From a virus: 11,216 bases of DNA. Positions 2,851 to 11,020 of the stretch are shown here, in pieces (the stretch's first letter is position 1; every line of letters begins with the position of its first letter). Below the pieces are notes generated by a model. That model was given only the letters and a program-made list of their open reading frames with translations, was not told the origin of the DNA and searched no databases. Both the position numbers and the translations under genes were made by a program. Location of the stretch: the UHGV virus genome UHGV-0117334; one strand, written 5' to 3'.

Positions 2851-3174
2851 ATGTTTAACGTGATAACCCACCCTGCAGCACTGGATGAACTGCTTGAACT
2901 ACCAGATGATTTGCGAGGTCGCATGACCAGATTAATTGAGCGACTGGAGAAGGAAGGCAACAAACTGAAGATGCCCCATAGCCGTGTAATAGGTGGAGGG
3001 CTTTTTGAACTACGAGTAGGGGATAAAAACATCGCAAGAACGCTGTACGCCTACGCGACTGGTAACGAAATTTATCTATTGCATGCTTTTGTCGAAACAA
3101 CGAAATATAACAAACAGAAAACACCGGTGAAGGCTATCGAAATCGCCAGAACTCGCCTGAAGGAGATGAACTGA
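2851..3174 (+). CDS. type II toxin, Gp49-like / HigB-like (RelE/ParE superfamily)
   Basis: 107-aa ORF with the family hallmark pattern ...RTLYAYATGNEIYLLHAFVETTKYNKQKTPVKAIEIARTRL. GGAGG SD 7 nt upstream of the ATG. Stop overlaps the start of the downstream HTH gene (TGATG). Confidence 0.8.
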   Translation: MFNVITHPAALDELLELPDDLRGRMTRLIERLEKEGNKLKMPHSRVIGGGLFELRVGDKNIARTLYAYATGNEIYLLHAFVETTKYNKQKTPVKAIEIARTRLKEMN

Positions 3175-3461
3175 TGAAAGCGAAAGGCATCCCGTTTAAC
3201 GAAGTAAAAGAAAAACTTCTCAACACTCCAGAAGCCATCAAAGGATATGAAGAGGCCGATAAAGAGCTGGAGATGGTCGAAATGTTATACGAAATGAGGG
3301 AAAGAGCAGGTTTAACGAAGTCAGCTCTGGCTGAACGAATGGGATTGCGCCCGTCAGCTATCAGCCGCCTGGAAAGCAATCCTTTAGGGGCAAGCATGAA
3401 AACTTTATCAAAATATGCCCAAGCATGCGGTGCAACGATTAATATTAATGCCGTCTATTGA
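3174..3461 (+). CDS. XRE-family HTH antitoxin (HigA-like) partner of the upstream toxin
   Basis: 95-aa ORF translationally coupled to the toxin. Helix-turn-helix segment LTKSALAERMGLRPSAISRLE. Toxin-first gene order is typical of HigBA-type modules. Confidence 0.8.
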   Translation: MKAKGIPFNEVKEKLLNTPEAIKGYEEADKELEMVEMLYEMRERAGLTKSALAERMGLRPSAISRLESNPLGASMKTLSKYAQACGATININAVY

Positions 3462-3504: not shown

Positions 3505-3723
3505 TCAATGATGCAAACACTCAACAGCAATAACTTGTTGGCAATTCTGAGCAATCTCCCGCGACATACTAACAAGTCGTGAAATCTCGCCAAGATGCAA
3601 GCTGGCTTCTGGAGAAGCCAGAGCAACGCTAACCAGATCCAAAACGGCGTCGATGTCTTTTAGGTTTGATCCGAGTTCTTCAAGAGTTGATACAGGTGCT
3701 TCAGTCATTGAATCTAATACCAT
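3505..3723 (-). CDS. hypothetical small acidic protein (72 aa); candidate SOS-controlled antirepressor
   Basis: ORF lies immediately downstream (minus strand) of a near-consensus LexA box and an operator-like sequence. No clear SD before the ATG, so the translation start is uncertain. Function inferred from context only. Confidence 0.4.
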   Translation of the reverse strand: MVLDSMTEAPVSTLEELGSNLKDIDAVLDLVSVALASPEASLHLGEISRLVSMSREIAQNCQQVIAVECLHH

Positions 3724-3747
3724 TTAATTAAAAAAGGTTATTTGATA

Positions 3748-3763
3748 CTGTATAAAATTACAG
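3748..3763. promoter_or_regulatory. LexA (SOS) box CTGT-N8-ACAG
   Basis: tACTGTATAAAATTACAGgg matches the E. coli LexA consensus TACTGTATATATATACAGTA at 16 of 20 positions, with an AT-rich 8-bp spacer. Sits 25-40 bp upstream of the minus-strand 72-aa ORF. Confidence 0.6.
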
Positions 3764-3773
3764 GGTAAAACTC

Positions 3774-3791
3774 AAATTTTATAGCCAACTT
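3774..3791. promoter_or_regulatory. operator-like sequence related to the repressor/cro operators
   Basis: AAATTTTATAGCCA is identical over 14 nt (16 of 18 over the extended site) to 7601-7618 in the repressor/cro intergenic operator region. Confidence 0.4.
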
Positions 3792-3964
3792 TCAATGGAT
3801 TAACTGGTTAAATATCTTTGTAGTCCGATACTTATGTTCCCTTCCTACGCCTCGCCCAACCACTTTCAAAAGCCCATCACCACCATCAGAAAAGCTCTTT
3901 TCGCTTCGTTTTCTCATCATTTCAAAAACTATGCCTTTTTGTTTATTTATCATTCCGTGACCAG

Positions 3965-6397: not shown

Positions 6398-6698
6398 TTT
6401 CTTGTGCGACCACGGTCGCACCCTCTCTGATTTCCAAGTAACGCTTAATCCAAAGATTTTCTATATGCTTATTACCTGGCTGATTTGATAAATACCAATC
6501 GGCAATTACAGACTGCTTATTACTATCTGGTCGTGTCCTGTAACCACAAGTTGGACACCAGATAACATATTCATTTCTTACCCCCGAATACCTTAATTCT
6601 GGCTTCGACGGTTTCCTGAACATAACTTGTTTACAAAGGCAGAATGGCACTTCCTGCCCGATGGCGTTTGATGATTTCACTGCGCTTCTCCGCCGCAT
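6378..6698 (-). CDS. hypothetical Zn-ribbon protein (CPTCGYR motif); start uncertain
   Basis: 106-aa ORF from the track. Its 5' 68 nt overlap the upstream 236-aa gene, and an internal ATG at 6623 would give 81 aa. The C-terminal residues ATVVAQ are encoded by the palindrome. Confidence 0.5.
   Translation of the reverse strand: MRRRSAVKSSNAIGQEVPFCLCKQVMFRKPSKPELRYSGVRNEYVIWCPTCGYRTRPDSNKQSVIADWYLSNQPGNKHIENLWIKRYLEIREGATVVAQENENNAI
6403..6420. repeat. 18-bp palindrome, copy 2 of 3 (reverse orientation); centromere-like site candidate
   Basis: TGTGCGACCACGGTCGCA on the + strand is the exact reverse complement of the 18-mer at 2202-2219 and 8848-8865. Overlaps the 3' end of the 106-aa ORF and the translation initiation region of the next gene. 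Confidence 0.6.
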
Positions 6699-7341
6699 TT
6701 AATAATGCAGTTCGATTTAAGCTCAGACATCGCGACTTAATTAAAAGCCAGCGTTCTTTATAATCTTGTCTCCAGCTATCAATAGATATATTCAGTAGAA
6801 AACTCAGATGCCTGTCCTGTTCTCTCTCATCAACTGCCTCAGCACACGTAAGTTCTGATTTAACCTGCTGTGCCGCGTAATAAATCAATTTCCGCATGGC
6901 TTTTTTCGTGGAGGCCTTCATTTTTTTAAAGCCGCCCCCCGAATGAGCAACCAGAAAATCAAGCCATAACCACTGACAAACAATCACATCATTGTTGTAA
7001 TCAGGCTTGCATCCGTAGCAATAATAAAGCCAGGCTGATTCCTCGTTATTCAACTGACCAATAGCCCTGCGCCAGCTGGCGCTCTGAAAATCAATATCAG
7101 TGAGCAACATTGATGATTGTTTAAATGTTTTCCCCTGGTGGAATCTAACCGGCTCAGCAGGAACGGACACTTCGTATGAGTTATCATCACCTACACTGAT
7201 TGACCGGACTGGTTTATTGTTAAAGCGTCCTGATCTGCCTAGACGCATCTGCTCAAGCTGGACCTCTAGGATGCCACGCTGGCGATAATGAATATCAGCC
7301 AATGCCGTGGATACGCAGCTGCGTATATACTCAAGCTCCAC
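6631..7341 (-). CDS. hypothetical protein (236 aa); Q-like late antiterminator candidate by position
   Basis: GTG start with AAGGAG SD about 10 nt upstream, immediately after cro. Several Cys residues (CYGC...C). Antiterminator role is inferred only from the cB-cro-Q gene order recalled for N15-like phages, not from a recognised motif. Confidence 0.6.
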   Translation of the reverse strand: MELEYIRSCVSTALADIHYRQRGILEVQLEQMRLGRSGRFNNKPVRSISVGDDNSYEVSVPAEPVRFHQGKTFKQSSMLLTDIDFQSASWRRAIGQLNNEESAWLYYCYGCKPDYNNDVIVCQWLWLDFLVAHSGGGFKKMKASTKKAMRKLIYYAAQQVKSELTCAEAVDEREQDRHLSFLLNISIDSWRQDYKERWLLIKSRCLSLNRTALLNAAEKRSEIIKRHRAGSAILPL

Positions 7342-7579
7342 GCTTACGGCTCTCCTTAATCGACTGCTTTACCCGCCGAGTTGTAAAGTCACTCTTCAGC
7401 TTGTAAGCAGTACGAACTTCAATATCACTTTGCCGCAATGAAGGAATCTCTCCAGCGGTTAACCATTGGTAAACAGCACCGGGTGTTACACCTACCCCAG
7501 CCGCTGCTTTTTCTACACTGCCAAAGTGGCGAATAAGTTCTTCTGGTTTCATGCGGTTATTATAAGCAATAAATCGCAT
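7331..7579 (-). CDS. cro: Cro-like HTH regulator
   Basis: 82-aa ORF divergent from the repressor. HTH segment FGSVEKAAAGVGVTPGAVYQWL is typical of Cro/YdaS-type proteins. An alternative start at ATG 7552 (MKPEEL...) lies just downstream of a TATAAT-like hexamer. Confidence 0.75.
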   Translation of the reverse strand: MRFIAYNNRMKPEELIRHFGSVEKAAAGVGVTPGAVYQWLTAGEIPSLRQSDIEVRTAYKLKSDFTTRRVKQSIKESRKRGA

Positions 7580-7580
7580 T

Positions 7581-7620
7581 TAAAGCCAGCTATAATAAAT
7601 AAATTTTATAGCCAGCTATA
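7581..7620. promoter_or_regulatory. operator region: two 14-bp palindromes TA(A/T)AGC-CA-GCTATA between divergent repressor and cro genes
   Basis: TAAAGCCAGCTATA (7581-7594) and TATAGCCAGCTATA (7607-7620) are spaced 26 bp centre to centre in the 64-bp intergenic region; the second ends 23 bp before the repressor ATG. Confidence 0.6.
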
Positions 7621-7643
7621 AGAAGATCATTTATGATTAAGCT

Positions 7644-8240
7644 ATGAAAACACGAGGCGAACGACTGAAAGCACGCCGTTTAGAGATGAAGCTGACGTTG
7701 CGAGAAGTTGCTGAGGCTGTCGATATCTCTATTGCAGGCGTCCAAAACTTAGAACGTGGCGACGTAATGCCGTCACTGGAGATAGGTATTGCCCTGGCTA
7801 AGTGCTTACGCAAGCCAGTGCATTGGGTGCTATATGGGACAGAATATGACCCTGATCGCATTCCTGTTATTGGCACAACTGAAAGTGGGCCGGATGAAGA
7901 GTGGAAGCCGGGACAGGTTCCAAATACTGAGCGATTCCTGCCATTCATCAGCCAGCGCAATACTGTGTATGCGTTAACTATCAGCAATCTTACGCAGGGA
8001 AACTATCAGCCAGGCGATTTTCTCCTGGTCGATTCTGCGCTGGAACTGGTCCCCGGCGAGGATGTTCTGGTTCGTGATACTGCAGGAAATATCACTATCC
8101 AGCGCCTGGCCCGTTTTGATGATGAAAATTACTATCTGGATGGAACAAACTCACAACGCGCCATCTTCAGGAAAAGCGATCTTGAATTTGTTCACCAAAT
8201 AGTCGGAACGATCAAATCATTCATGGTTGAGGGTAGATGA
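7644..8240 (+). CDS. phage repressor, CI/CB-type (N-terminal XRE HTH, C-terminal beta-rich domain)
   Basis: 198-aa ORF. HTH segment LTLREVAEAVDISIAGVQNLERG. The C-terminal domain resembles the oligomerisation / peptidase-like domain of CI/LexA-type repressors, but I could not pick out a clear Ser-Lys catalytic dyad by eye. No SD before the ATG, so it may be translated from a leaderless or short-leader mRNA. Confidence 0.85.
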   Translation: MKTRGERLKARRLEMKLTLREVAEAVDISIAGVQNLERGDVMPSLEIGIALAKCLRKPVHWVLYGTEYDPDRIPVIGTTESGPDEEWKPGQVPNTERFLPFISQRNTVYALTISNLTQGNYQPGDFLLVDSALELVPGEDVLVRDTAGNITIQRLARFDDENYYLDGTNSQRAIFRKSDLEFVHQIVGTIKSFMVEGR

Positions 8241-8341
8241 CTTAATACGGGGTTTATTGTTTGCTGTAAATCTGGTTTAATGCAGGGCATATGTTCTGTG
8301 GGTTGACTCAGGTTACAGCAGCAGAAAAAAGACGAAAAAAA

Positions 8342-8370
8342 ACCCGAGTCGGCAAACTCGGGTCCTTTTC
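8342..8370 (+). terminator. rho-independent terminator downstream of the repressor gene
   Basis: A-tract, then 8-bp stem ACCCGAGT/ACTCGGGT with 6-nt loop, then CCTTTTC. Located about 100 bp after the repressor stop. Confidence 0.6.
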
Positions 8371-8485
8371 AGGAAGCAGCCACAACAACGCGACAGATTC
8401 CGTCAATTCAAGATGCGTTTATTGTGGCTGCTCCTGCGGATTTTTTCAACCCGAAAAAACATAATTCGCATGGAATGGCTAAAAA

Positions 8486-11020
8486 ATGACATTAAACGAT
8501 TTCTATGCGGATCGCTTTGGCAGCGATCCGTTCTCGCTAATTGAAGCAGCACGGGATGAAATAACCGAGCTGGCACAGATGGCTGGTATCAACTGGCCTG
8601 CCTGTTCCGACAACATCCAACTCAACCCTCGCGGGGGGGGTGAGCGTTACTCTTCATACAATAAAACATCTCCAGAAGCTCTCGAAAAGAGCCTGAAAGG
8701 ACGCGTAGAAATTTACTCCAGGCTGGAACACAGCAAAGGGATTGATTACCCGTTCATTAACTTCGTCCATAAAGGCAGCGATGCTGGCTCATGGAGCGGT
8801 TTCTCCTTCCTGTTTTCTGAATATCGCCGTGAGCAACAACGGAATAATGCGACCGTGGTCGCACAACCGGAAGAAGAACGGGCAAGAATAGAACGTCAGG
8901 CCGAAGCACGTCGTCGCCGTGAAGAACAAAAACGAATTAATGACCTGAAAAACAACCAAATGGACCATGAACGTTTGCTGGGATGGCTGGCATTCCACAG
9001 TGCTTGGGAACATGCTCCTGCAGAAGACGGCTCATGGCCATATGCGATTAAAAAAGGTATTCGTGACGTTTTTAATTCGTGTGATGTGCGTCGCGTGACC
9101 AGTCACGACAGCGCAAAATGGAGCAGGGGGCCAACCACGTATATGGCTATCCCTCTGGCTCACCTGGACGGTCGTTACGATGGTCGTATTGTTGGTTGGC
9201 AGAGAATCGACAAACAAGGTGGAAAATACCAGACCAGCGCCGTAACCAGCGGCGATTTCGTCGGTGCCTGCTTTGTTATCGGTGAGCTGAAAGGGGCGCA
9301 AAACATCGCTGTTACAGAAGGTTTTGCTACTGGTGCATCCATCTGGCTTGCCACGAAAAAAGATAAACGCTTTGACGCTGTGGTTGTCGCTGTATCCGCT
9401 AACAACATGGTTCATGTTGTGGAACAACTGGTAAACATGTACCCGGCGGCAAAAATCACCTGCGCACTGGATAATGACCGGAAATCAGCTACAGAAGGAA
9501 AAGGGAATACCGGCCTGCGGACTGGCTATGAAATCTTATCGAAATTCAACGATGTCCGCTGCGTCTATCCAACTTTTGAAGACGATCCGCAAATGGAGTG
9601 CAGTGACTTCAACGACCTGCACAAACTACGTGGACTTCGTGAAACAGCACGTCAACTGTTTGCAACTGCAAACCGCCTGAAAACTGGCACTGATTTGCTA
9701 TCTCTGACGCTCAACCGCCTGAAGACAATTAAGCGGGATAACCGTCGTACTTTTGCCAAAGAGCTGCTGAGAGCGGTGGATATTGGCATGCTAACCTGTC
9801 CGGTTCCTAACAGTCCGTCAGACTTATTTAACATGTTCTGCATCGTTCTGCGTGAAATGGGGCTGGAAAATATCTATCGCGCTACGGTAAAAGACCACAT
9901 TGCCCGTCGCCTGAATAAAAAGTGCCGTATTGCCCAGGCTCCGCGCTCATTCAGCGAACGCATAACTGATCCCAATAAACGTCCTCAACATATCACCTAT
10001 AAGCGTTTTGAAACTTCGGTAATGACCGATGACGTCCTGAAGTACGTGCAATCACTACAGGGGATAGTCATCGTCCGTGCTGGTATGGGTTCCGGCAAAT
10101 CTACTGGATTGTTACGACCGTTAATGCATAGCTCAGAACGTGGTATCTCTGTTGCTCACCGTGTCTCCCTTATTGGTGGCCTGTGGGAAATGATGACAGA
10201 AGGAAAAGGTGTAAAAGCCGATATCCTGCACTATCAGGACCCTGGCTATCAGGAAATGGCTCCATACGCCAGTAAACTGACCATCTGCATAAACTCGATT
10301 GTTAAAAACTGCTGGCAACCGTTGATGCGCCAGCACGACTATTTTGGCTTTGACGAGGCCACACAAGGGCTACGTGCCGTTCTTTCCGGTCGGGCTATGG
10401 AAAACCCGGTGGCTGTATTCCATACGCTAATTGACGCGCTGGCCAGAACGGAACAACACCCAATCATGGTGGATGCTGATGCGAACGATCTGCTGGTTGA
10501 CCTGGCTGAACTGGCTATGAAACGCCGTGAAGAACTAGGTTTACCGGCATGGCTGCAGATCCACGTAATTGAATTACCTGTTGATGTTCGCAACCGCGAA
10601 ACAGGTGAGCCAATCCGGGTTTTTTATACAGAAAAAGATCGCATTATGACCGAGGTGGTGAAAGCTGTATCGGATGGCGAAAAAATCATGTTGGCCACCG
10701 ACAGCTCCACCTTTGCAGAAGATGTGACAGCCACCCTGAGAATGCATTTTCCTGGTAAGAAATTTCTGTGTGTAAACCAGAAAAGTAAACAGGATGAAGA
10801 AGTCGATGCCTTTACCAACCAGCCAAAAGTAATGGTGATGAAATACGATGGACTGATCTACAGTCCGTCAATTTCCTCCGGGGTGTCATTTGAGAAAAAA
10901 CATTTTGACCGTCATTTCGGCATGTTCTGCGGTGAAGTTGTGCCCAGCGACGCAGTGCAAATGCTACGCCGCGACCGTACAGCAAAAGAATTTATTATCG
11001 GCTTTGAAAGATACGGATAA
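8486..11020 (+). CDS. repA: replication protein: Toprim-type primase fused to a P-loop helicase (RepA-like primase-helicase)
   Basis: 844-aa ORF. Toprim motifs (IAVTEGFATGASI with catalytic Glu; CALDNDRK DxD motif). Walker A (GMGSGKST) and Walker B-like (YFGFDEATQG) in the C-terminal half. Same strand as and downstream of the repressor, as recalled for repA in N15-like phage-plasmids. Gene symbol is by architecture only. Confidence 0.85.
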   Translation: MTLNDFYADRFGSDPFSLIEAARDEITELAQMAGINWPACSDNIQLNPRGGGERYSSYNKTSPEALEKSLKGRVEIYSRLEHSKGIDYPFINFVHKGSDAGSWSGFSFLFSEYRREQQRNNATVVAQPEEERARIERQAEARRRREEQKRINDLKNNQMDHERLLGWLAFHSAWEHAPAEDGSWPYAIKKGIRDVFNSCDVRRVTSHDSAKWSRGPTTYMAIPLAHLDGRYDGRIVGWQRIDKQGGKYQTSAVTSGDFVGACFVIGELKGAQNIAVTEGFATGASIWLATKKDKRFDAVVVAVSANNMVHVVEQLVNMYPAAKITCALDNDRKSATEGKGNTGLRTGYEILSKFNDVRCVYPTFEDDPQMECSDFNDLHKLRGLRETARQLFATANRLKTGTDLLSLTLNRLKTIKRDNRRTFAKELLRAVDIGMLTCPVPNSPSDLFNMFCIVLREMGLENIYRATVKDHIARRLNKKCRIAQAPRSFSERITDPNKRPQHITYKRFETSVMTDDVLKYVQSLQGIVIVRAGMGSGKSTGLLRPLMHSSERGISVAHRVSLIGGLWEMMTEGKGVKADILHYQDPGYQEMAPYASKLTICINSIVKNCWQPLMRQHDYFGFDEATQGLRAVLSGRAMENPVAVFHTLIDALARTEQHPIMVDADANDLLVDLAELAMKRREELGLPAWLQIHVIELPVDVRNRETGEPIRVFYTEKDRIMTEVVKAVSDGEKIMLATDSSTFAEDVTATLRMHFPGKKFLCVNQKSKQDEEVDAFTNQPKVMVMKYDGLIYSPSISSGVSFEKKHFDRHFGMFCGEVVPSDAVQMLRRDRTAKEFIIGFERYG
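8848..8865. repeat. 18-bp palindrome, copy 3 of 3, inside the primase-helicase coding sequence
   Basis: TGCGACCGTGGTCGCACA identical to 2202-2219. Encodes the residues ATVVAQ of the replication protein. Confidence 0.6.

Follow-up and report, generated by a model that had tools for sequence, protein, structure and literature searches.

The window, by which the whole stretch of 11,216 nucleotides from the virus genome UHGV-0117334 is meant, was compared over positions 7000-8400 with a phage collection (BLASTN), which gave 98.6% identity to Escherichia phage PhiR46_1, 98.0% to YDC107_1, and, with 99% of the query covered, about 74% to N15, phiKO2 and a number of telomere phages of Klebsiella and Enterobacter. 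The gene order, with Q and cro on one side of the intergenic region and cB and repA on the other, is identical in the window, N15 and phiKO2. Judged by its sequence, the window belongs to the N15-like telomere phage-plasmids of E. coli, and the region discussed here is the immB (primary immunity) region of the linear plasmid-prophage. Its genes and predicted operators are the following:

6631..7341, minus strand: gene of a Q-like antiterminator (Pfam Phage_antiter_Q, 2e-84), downstream of cro and in a common operon with it
7331..7552, minus strand: cro, lytic repressor of 73 aa (Pfam P22_Cro, 2e-22), true start at ATG 7552
7557-7572: predicted operator OR1, TTATTATAAGCAATAA, homologue by position of N15 OR1 (TTATTATAATCAATAA), matching it at 15/16 positions
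7580-7595: predicted operator OR2, TTAAAGCCAGCTATAA, homologue of N15 OR2 (TTAAAGCTAGGTATAA) and phiKO2 OR2 (TTAAAGCCAGGTATAA)
7606-7621: predicted operator OR3, TTATAGCCAGCTATAA, 16/16 identical to OR3 of both N15 and phiKO2
7644..8240, plus strand: cB, prophage repressor of 198 aa with an N-terminal HTH_3 and a degenerate S24-like C-terminal domain
8254-8269: predicted operator OL2, TTATTGTTTGCTGTAA, upstream of repA, homologue by position of N15 TTATTGCTGACTATAA
8277-8292: predicted operator OL1, TTAATGCAGGGCATAT, homologue by position of N15 OL1 (TTAATCCGATCTATAC), overlapping the -10 hexamer TTTAAT of PL
8486..11007, plus strand (ORF 8486-11020): repA, primase/helicase replication gene (Pfam Toprim_3 and Herpes_ori_bp)

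The CB protein is 78% identical to CB of N15, 77% to that of phiKO2 and 100% to RefSeq WP_001495876.1. Its HTH_3 domain is recognised with an E-value of 3e-11, and its Peptidase_S24 match of 21.3 bits stays under the cut-off of 23.3 bits. Compared with N15, the helix-turn-helix carries three changes near where the recognition helix begins (D27G, I30L and A31P) and is otherwise conserved; the predicted helix opens with I-A instead of the L-P found in N15 and phiKO2, so that affinities could differ. Cro is 76% identical to its N15 and 80% to its phiKO2 counterpart, matches the N15 Cro structures PDB 2HIN/6ON0 (E = 2e-32) and carries a recognition helix, PGAVYQW (Pro H1, Tyr H5, Gln H6), that is invariant relative to both phages. 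Homology of repA to its relatives stops at about position 11007, and the RefSeq name of the homologues is 'plasmid replication protein, CyRepA1 family'. A search of the whole window against Rfam at gathering thresholds returned zero matches, and the region is thus not explained by any known RNA element.

The immB operators OR1-OR3 and OL1-OL2 of N15 were reportedly described by Lobocka and colleagues in 1996. The GenBank record of N15 immB (U45242.1) lists three 16-bp protein_bind features for CB between cro and cB, namely OR1, OR2 and OR3, and two further CB sites over the repA promoter, OL1 and OL2, the latter bearing the erroneous label "OR2". According to Hammerl et al. (2016; PMC4997575), all five operators are bound by N15 CB, and EMSA in the same study demonstrated that phiKO2 CB binds OR1-3 and OL1-2 as well as the N15 operators, that Cro binds OR3 alone and that OR3 half-sites are bound by neither protein. 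The minimal target comprised 18 bp for CB and 16 bp for Cro, the outermost base pairs were found to determine specificity, and the pattern T-A-N10-T-A is common to all operators (PMC4997575). CB was reported to be devoid of the RecA-cleavage and active-site residues, and reporter work in phiKO2 placed one cB promoter, P1, near cro and a second, P2, at the border of OR3 (PMC4997575). For N15 Cro and OR3 a KD of about 90 nM was determined, with OR1 and OR2 unbound, and a co-crystal was solved on a symmetric consensus site that departs from OR3 at a single central base pair; the fold of this Cro is all-alpha, with a dimer interface unlike that of lambda Cro (Hall et al., 2019; PMC6649833). Furthermore, phiKO2 CB loops OL to OR in vivo (loopometer paper, PMC8053113), and induction of N15 needs AntC, a member of the SOS regulon, according to the passages of PMC4488713 and PMC3121763 that cite this work.

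A preliminary description of the window had drawn attention to two palindromes, TAAAGCCAGCTATA at 7581-7594 and TATAGCCAGCTATA at 7607-7620, and had read them as operators of a repressor/cro switch. Its statements on the sequence hold: the palindromes start 26 bp apart, both have a 6-2-6 architecture (TATAGC-CA-GCTATA), and they are flanked by the cro-like ORF on the minus strand and the repressor ORF 7644-8240 on the plus strand. A repeat finder returned the same elements as a 26-nt direct repeat (7568-7593 and 7594-7619, 81% identical) and as 16-nt arms (7580-7595 and 7606-7621). The reading as switch operators is supported as well, given that the palindromes are orthologous to OR2 and OR3 of N15 and phiKO2 in position, spacing and sequence. 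The proposed 14-bp unit has to be extended, as the functional unit is one of 16 bp, with a minimum of 18 bp for CB, and the number of intergenic operators rises from two to three, since OR1 had been overlooked, as had the OL1/OL2 pair upstream of repA.

Each of the three intergenic sites coincides with putative promoter elements. OR1 contains the -10 hexamer TATAAT of cro (7564..7559, minus strand), located 6 nt upstream of the cro ATG. OR2, together with T7596, forms a TATAAT (7591-7596) that might serve as a plus-strand -10 for cB; the site matches N15 OR2 at 14/16 positions and the proven OR2 sites of N15 and phiKO2 at 14-15/16, and its sole difference from the window's OR3 is the change of T4 to A. 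OR3 covers the -35-like TAGCCA (7609-7614) of a candidate cB promoter. The start-to-start spacings of 23 bp (OR1-OR2) and 26 bp (OR2-OR3) equal those in N15, the OR segment of the window aligns without indels to the annotated N15 sites, and T-A at positions 2-3 and 14-15, the T-A-N10-T-A pattern, is present in OR1, OR2, OR3, OL2 and OL1.

Two quantitative approaches bear on the assignment. The ten proven N15 and phiKO2 operators were combined into a symmetrised weight matrix, with which 11,201 positions of the window were scanned, and the four highest scores fell on OR3 (22.4 bits), OR2 (20.4 bits), OR1 (14.7 bits) and OL2 (14.0 bits). A phylogenetic footprint over 19 related loci, which represent 11 distinct OR segments, found 6 variable columns among the 48 of the operators as opposed to 10 among the 17 of the spacers (Fisher p = 4e-4). 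Within the operators OR1 and OR2 the variation is mainly central (in OR1 confined to positions 9, 10 and 12), while outer positions and dyad symmetry are kept and the spacers drift. OR3 is invariant in 19/19 loci, a count made after anchoring on the exact 16-mer, which was nevertheless present wherever the region of a locus was intact.

Orthology, spacing, sequence identity and the phylogenetic footprint are the basis obtained in this analysis, and with a probability of roughly 0.93 they identify the palindromes as OR2 and OR3 of an N15-like immB region, forming together with OR1 an array of three 16-bp operators amid the divergent cro/Q and cB promoters. We infer from the same sequence data that the sites would be bound by the phage's own CB and Cro, that the promoters would be in use and that leaderless starts are plausible.

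The array is a member of the N15/phiKO2 operator family, which was first described in 1996 and dissected between 2015 and 2019. The likeness to N15 (U45242.1) comprises the gene order, the 16-bp operators with their 23/26-bp spacing, the identical OR3, the OL pair over the repA promoter and the -10 hexamer TATAAT inside OR1 beside the cro ATG; the differences are a DNA identity of about 74%, a CB identity of 78%, an OR2 that is nearer to OR3 in the window, and OL2 and OL1 sites that are more degenerate there. With phiKO2 the window has in common five T-A-N10-T-A operators, the identical OR3 and the CC centre of phiKO2 OR2, whereas OR1 of phiKO2 reads TTATTATATTCGATAA and CB and Cro are 77% and 80% identical. 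Specific to the clade of the window are only details, namely the OR2 one base from OR3, the more degenerate OL sites and a frameshifted ATG upstream of cB. The value of the assignment lies mainly in annotation, as it supplies the set of OR1-OR3 and OL1-OL2 together with the cro start at 7552 and the cB start at 7644, and the operators have their orthologues in a non-lambda genetic switch that is among the better characterised.

Orthology with N15 and phiKO2 suggests the following mechanism. CB dimers on OR1-OR3 would shut the lytic cro-Q promoters, which overlap the operators, and would autoregulate cB. Bound to OL2 and OL1 (8254-8292), CB would in addition repress the repA promoter and thereby set the copy number of the plasmid, and a CB-mediated DNA loop could bridge OL and OR. 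Cro, acting on essentially OR3 alone, would turn cB transcription off. Induction would proceed via the small antirepressor AntC, whose predicted promoter at 3747-3775 has a perfect LexA box; as the sub-threshold S24 match suggests a CB without a functional self-cleavage domain, induction would be expected to depend on this SOS-controlled protein.

On the repA side, GenBank U45242.1 marks the N15 homologue of OL2 as a CB protein_bind feature, and this feature overlaps the -35 of PL, the repA promoter; the OL pair of the window is homologous to OL2/OL1 of phiKO2 as well. OL1 is degenerate in the clade of the window (6.8 bits), and control of repA may thus rest mainly on OL2. By homology, the second promoter under CB control is the repA promoter, with OL1/OL2 as its predicted sites.

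The switch works like that of lambda, yet it is not a member of the lambda family. Both have three tandem imperfect palindromes between divergent repressor and cro genes, a Cro that prefers OR3 and stops repressor synthesis, and a second operator cluster beyond the repressor gene that allows long-range looping. The lambda operators, however, measure 17 bp rather than 16 bp and their half-site sequences are unrelated; Cro of the N15 type is all-alpha, belongs to Pfam P22_Cro and occupies a single operator, whereas the lambda-fold Cro binds all three OR sites; and in the N15 type a plasmid replication gene is under the control of OL, and a LexA-controlled antirepressor brings about induction, CB not being RecA-cleavable.

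How closely Cro of the window follows the N15 pattern is a separate matter: in this clade a single base separates OR2 from OR3, so the restriction of Cro to OR3 may not carry over in every detail. It is possible, although rather unlikely, that the switch is N15-like except that Cro also binds OR2 and partly represses its own promoters, which would bring it nearer to the lambda pattern. The number of mismatches between OR2 and OR3 drops from three in N15 through two in phiKO2 to one in the window, one half-site of the window's OR2 is fully consensus with only base pair 4 of the other half-site changed, and the recognition helix of Cro equals that of N15. That single change, A-T to T-A at position 4, is however the very one said to disrupt the Gln H6 contact, and phiKO2 Cro binds its own OR2 only at 1-2 uM (PMC6649833). 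Action of Cro essentially through OR3 is the preferred reading.

The preliminary description had also noted, at 3774-3791, a sequence sharing 14 identical nucleotides with the operator region, and had suggested that the same repressor controls a second promoter there. This part of the window contains the following elements:

3505..3708, minus strand: antC-like gene
3746..3763: LexA (SOS) box, TACTGTATAAAATTACAG, in the promoter of the antC-like gene
3779-3794: 'third site', TTATAGCCAACTTTCA, with one perfect OR3 half-site plus the centre, matching OR3 at 13/16 positions

The antC-like ORF encodes 67 aa and is homologous to the ORF behind the SOS box of N15. Its promoter, placed by eye and by conservation with N15, would consist of a -35 TTGAGT (3775..3770) and a -10 TACAGT (3752..3747) separated by a 17-bp spacer, and a scan for consensus promoters over 3600-3950, around the third site, returned nothing at threshold. 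A perfect CTGT-N8-ACAG, CTGTATAAAATTACAG, at 3748-3763 lies between the two hexamers and overlaps the -10, and N15 and every E. coli-clade relative have the LexA box at the corresponding position. LexA control is a feature that the antirepressor AntC of N15 has in common with Tum of coliphage 186, and the third site adjoins an SOS box; the regulator in these cases is host LexA, though, and not CB. The third site itself would span about -39 to -54 relative to the antC promoter, which is beyond the core promoter and not a repressing position.

The shared sequence as such is real, the 14-mer AAATTTTATAGCCA being present at 3774-3787 and at 7601-7614. An exact match of at least 14 nt linking the 75-nt OR segment to any other part of the window appeared in 2 of 400 dinucleotide shuffles, and the third site, with 13.2 bits, ranks fifth in the window, 0.11 such sites being expected per shuffled window; under the looser test of up to three mismatches to the 14-mer, 1.37 chance matches are expected per window. 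The T-A-N10-T-A pattern is absent, with T-C at positions 14-15, and the right half read outward, TGAAAGTT, has G at the invariant position 2. The TGA with which the upstream minus-strand ORF stops (3794..3792) falls within the site.

Its distribution among relatives is patchy. At the homologous position the site is absent in N15, which reads AACGATACAACCATTT, and nothing similar occurs in phiKO2. Among the 12 E. coli-clade relatives, seven have the third site, while the other five (PhiR46_1, L011, L012, L013 and L014) have AACTTTACGGTCAATT instead, which agrees with OR3 at 9/16 positions; three of these five encode the exact CB of the window. Two RefSeq-named CB variants were each found with either allele, and among the 12 relatives the association looks random. 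PLSDB contains 12 records with the allele type of the window and 16 with the other. In one relative, L009, the site reads TTATAGCCAGCTTTCA, which is one step nearer to OR3 and scores 15.4 bits, and the related genomes contain sporadic, non-conserved matches of 12.5-13.7 bits at other places.

Two further accounts of the shared 14-mer were considered and rejected. As a -10 or extended -10 (TGGCTATAAAAT, minus strand) it has no acceptable -35 at a distance of 16-18 bp at either location, and as a patch of OR3 introduced by gene conversion it should differ as a block, whereas the alleles differ by scattered substitutions, with 5/24 differences in the site region and a similar density upstream. 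As a separate observation, an operator-like sequence, GTAAAGCAAACTATAA, lies upstream of immA in relatives.

The suggested control of a second promoter through the site at 3774-3791 is not supported, as only one half-site is intact, T-A-N10-T-A is broken and the resemblance is allele-specific. The third site is probably not an operator, and the 14-nt match at 3774-3787 is most likely an allele-specific partial resemblance beside the antC promoter, without operator function. The opposite view, that it is an auxiliary CB operator, weak and maybe aided by looping with OR/OL 3.8 kb away, through which CB modulates the LexA-controlled antC promoter, appears improbable. It draws on the rarity under shuffling of an exact 14-nt match to OR3 and its flank, on the location directly upstream of a regulated promoter, on the higher-scoring version in L009 and on a score that falls within the range of proven weak operators (N15 OR1 12.9 bits, N15 OL1 10.9 bits, phiKO2 OR1 9.6 bits), and DNA looping is within the ability of phiKO2 CB (PMC8053113). 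Yet the broken pattern is one that all ten proven operators possess, and half-sites of OR3 itself were bound by neither CB nor Cro in EMSA (PMC4997575). The absence from N15, phiKO2 and five of the 12 clade relatives, three of them with the exact CB, argues against such a function, as do the 12 PLSDB records of the window's type against 16 of the other, the distance from the core promoter and the non-conserved matches of comparable score elsewhere in related genomes. Moreover, the stop codon dictates the degenerate half (minus strand), which the non-matching allele shares, five of the 14 matching bases belong to the flank beyond the operator, and ten of the 14 are plain A/T. In the N15/phiKO2 literature cited here there is no report of CB binding at the antC promoter. 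If the auxiliary operator did exist, CB would add a phage-encoded layer over the LexA-regulated antC in an allele subset of E. coli N15-like plasmid-prophages, and this would amount to a direct feedback from repressor to antirepressor that is undescribed for telomere phages.

That the palindromes are a mere by-product of a 26-bp tandem duplication carrying promoter hexamers (GCTATAAT), and not protein-binding sites, is highly implausible, because, despite the 81% identity of the 26-nt repeats and the -10-like TATAAT and TATAAG in the two copies, CB and Cro bind the identical OR3 in vitro, a crystal structure shows N15 Cro on a near-identical symmetric consensus, and dyad symmetry and outer positions have persisted alongside drifting spacers.

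We now return to the operator array of the N15 type and to the start codons of the flanking genes. The preliminary description had referred to the first ATG of cro, which in the ORF lies at 7579; homology places the start at ATG 7552 instead (MKPEEL; N15, phiKO2 and RefSeq annotation). The upstream ATG, which falls between OR1 and OR2, is shared by only some of the relatives: the triplet at 7579 reads CAT in these and CAA, TAA or AAA in the others. An 82-aa cro ORF beginning at 7579 was rejected, as the P22_Cro domain begins at its residue 11 and the ATG is not conserved.

The same description had stated that neither gene has a canonical Shine-Dalgarno sequence, and indeed no GGAG-like Shine-Dalgarno lies within 15 nt of the cro or the cB start codon. 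A promoter scan gave as its sole match a candidate cB promoter, TAGCCA-17-TATGAT, at 7609-7637. In both genes a -10 hexamer is located 6 nt upstream of the true ATG (TATAAT for cro; TATGAT for cB, ATG 7644), and from this placement transcripts are predicted to start at or beside the A of the ATG, which makes leaderless or short-leader cro and cB transcripts plausible. The lambda cI mRNA made from PRM is leaderless.

Between OR3 and cB an SD-like AAGAAG (7620-7625) is followed by a mini-ORF of four codons (ATG 7633 to TGA 7647), the stop of which overlaps the cB ATG. This arrangement offers a candidate alternative route of translation for leadered cB transcripts. In N15 and phiKO2 the upstream ATG is in frame with cB (MIKG/MINR-MKTRG), whereas in the window it is out of frame, owing to a 1-nt deletion relative to N15 that leaves the four-codon mini-ORF. 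With regard to leadered transcripts, the cB promoters of phiKO2 sit further upstream of the gene than the -10 of the window with its distance of 6 nt (PMC4997575).

Within the clade of the window, a single base (T4 to A) separates OR2 (7580-7595) from OR3, whereas OR2 differs from OR3 at three positions in N15 and at two in phiKO2. Cro binds only OR3 in both of these phages, but in the window's clade it might bind OR2 as well. The following element lies at the start of cB:

7620-7647: SD-like AAGAAG followed by a 4-codon mini-ORF (ATG 7633, TGA 7647)

The stop codon of the mini-ORF overlaps the cB start codon in the form ATGA, an arrangement that may allow translational coupling. The same upstream ATG is in frame in N15 and phiKO2, where CB is four residues longer, while in the E. 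coli clade it opens a mini-ORF because of a 1-nt deletion.

A putative SOS-controlled locus and its neighbours are found on the left of the window:

3746-3763: LexA SOS box TACTGTATAAAATTACAG, overlapping the -10 element of the promoter of the ORF below
3505..3708, (-) strand: 67-aa ORF (MTEAPVSTLEEL...) behind the SOS-box promoter
2851-3174 and 3174-3461, both (+) strand: RelE/ParE-type toxin and HTH antitoxin pair, adjoining the antC locus

The LexA box is a perfect SOS box that N15 and every E. coli-clade relative retain. The ORF behind it is homologous to an unannotated N15 ORF that likewise lies behind the SOS box of that phage and is presumably antC, the LexA-controlled antirepressor gene. 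A toxin-antitoxin pair stands beside the antC locus in N15 (genes 49/48) and phiKO2 (gp49/gp48) as it does in the window.

When scanned with the CB matrix, the weight matrix built from ten proven N15/phiKO2 operators, relatives show a sequence resembling an operator, GTAAAGCAAACTATAA or TTCAAGCAAACTATAA, with a score of 12-14 bits. It is located upstream of the immA (icd/antA/antB) locus, at a position outside the window:

N15 (L002): 12748-12763
phiKO2 (L004): 13943-13958
PhiR46_1 (L003): 13745-13760

These three divergent telomere phages keep the sequence at the same place, where it may serve as an additional binding site for CB or represent only a conserved promoter.

The repA leader contains two elements:

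8335-8370: strong bidirectional terminator hairpin
8449..8421, (-) strand: antisense promoter-like TTGAAA-17-CACAAT

Their counterparts in N15 are annotated as a leader terminator and as 'Pinc', the promoter of a putative antisense RNA; a whole-window Rfam scan at gathering thresholds returned no family match for the leader elements. Further downstream, N15-like repA homology stops abruptly at about 11007, and the stretch from 10986 to the end (11216) matches a Parabacteroides distasonis plasmid record at 97.8%, the matched segment being a glycoside hydrolase family 16 gene. Since the homology break coincides with this match and the two sides overlap by 22 nt, the right end looks like a chimeric join of the metagenome assembly, and the 'truncated' repA product of 844 aa, compared with about 1331 aa for RepA of relatives, would therefore be an artefact.

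Lastly, the 18-bp palindrome GTGCGACCGTGGTCGCAC occurs in three copies with 0 or 1 mismatch, where none would be expected by chance:

2201-2218
6404-6421
8847-8864

The phiKO2 record labels this palindrome 'putative plasmid partitioning site', referring to dispersed centromere-like sites.
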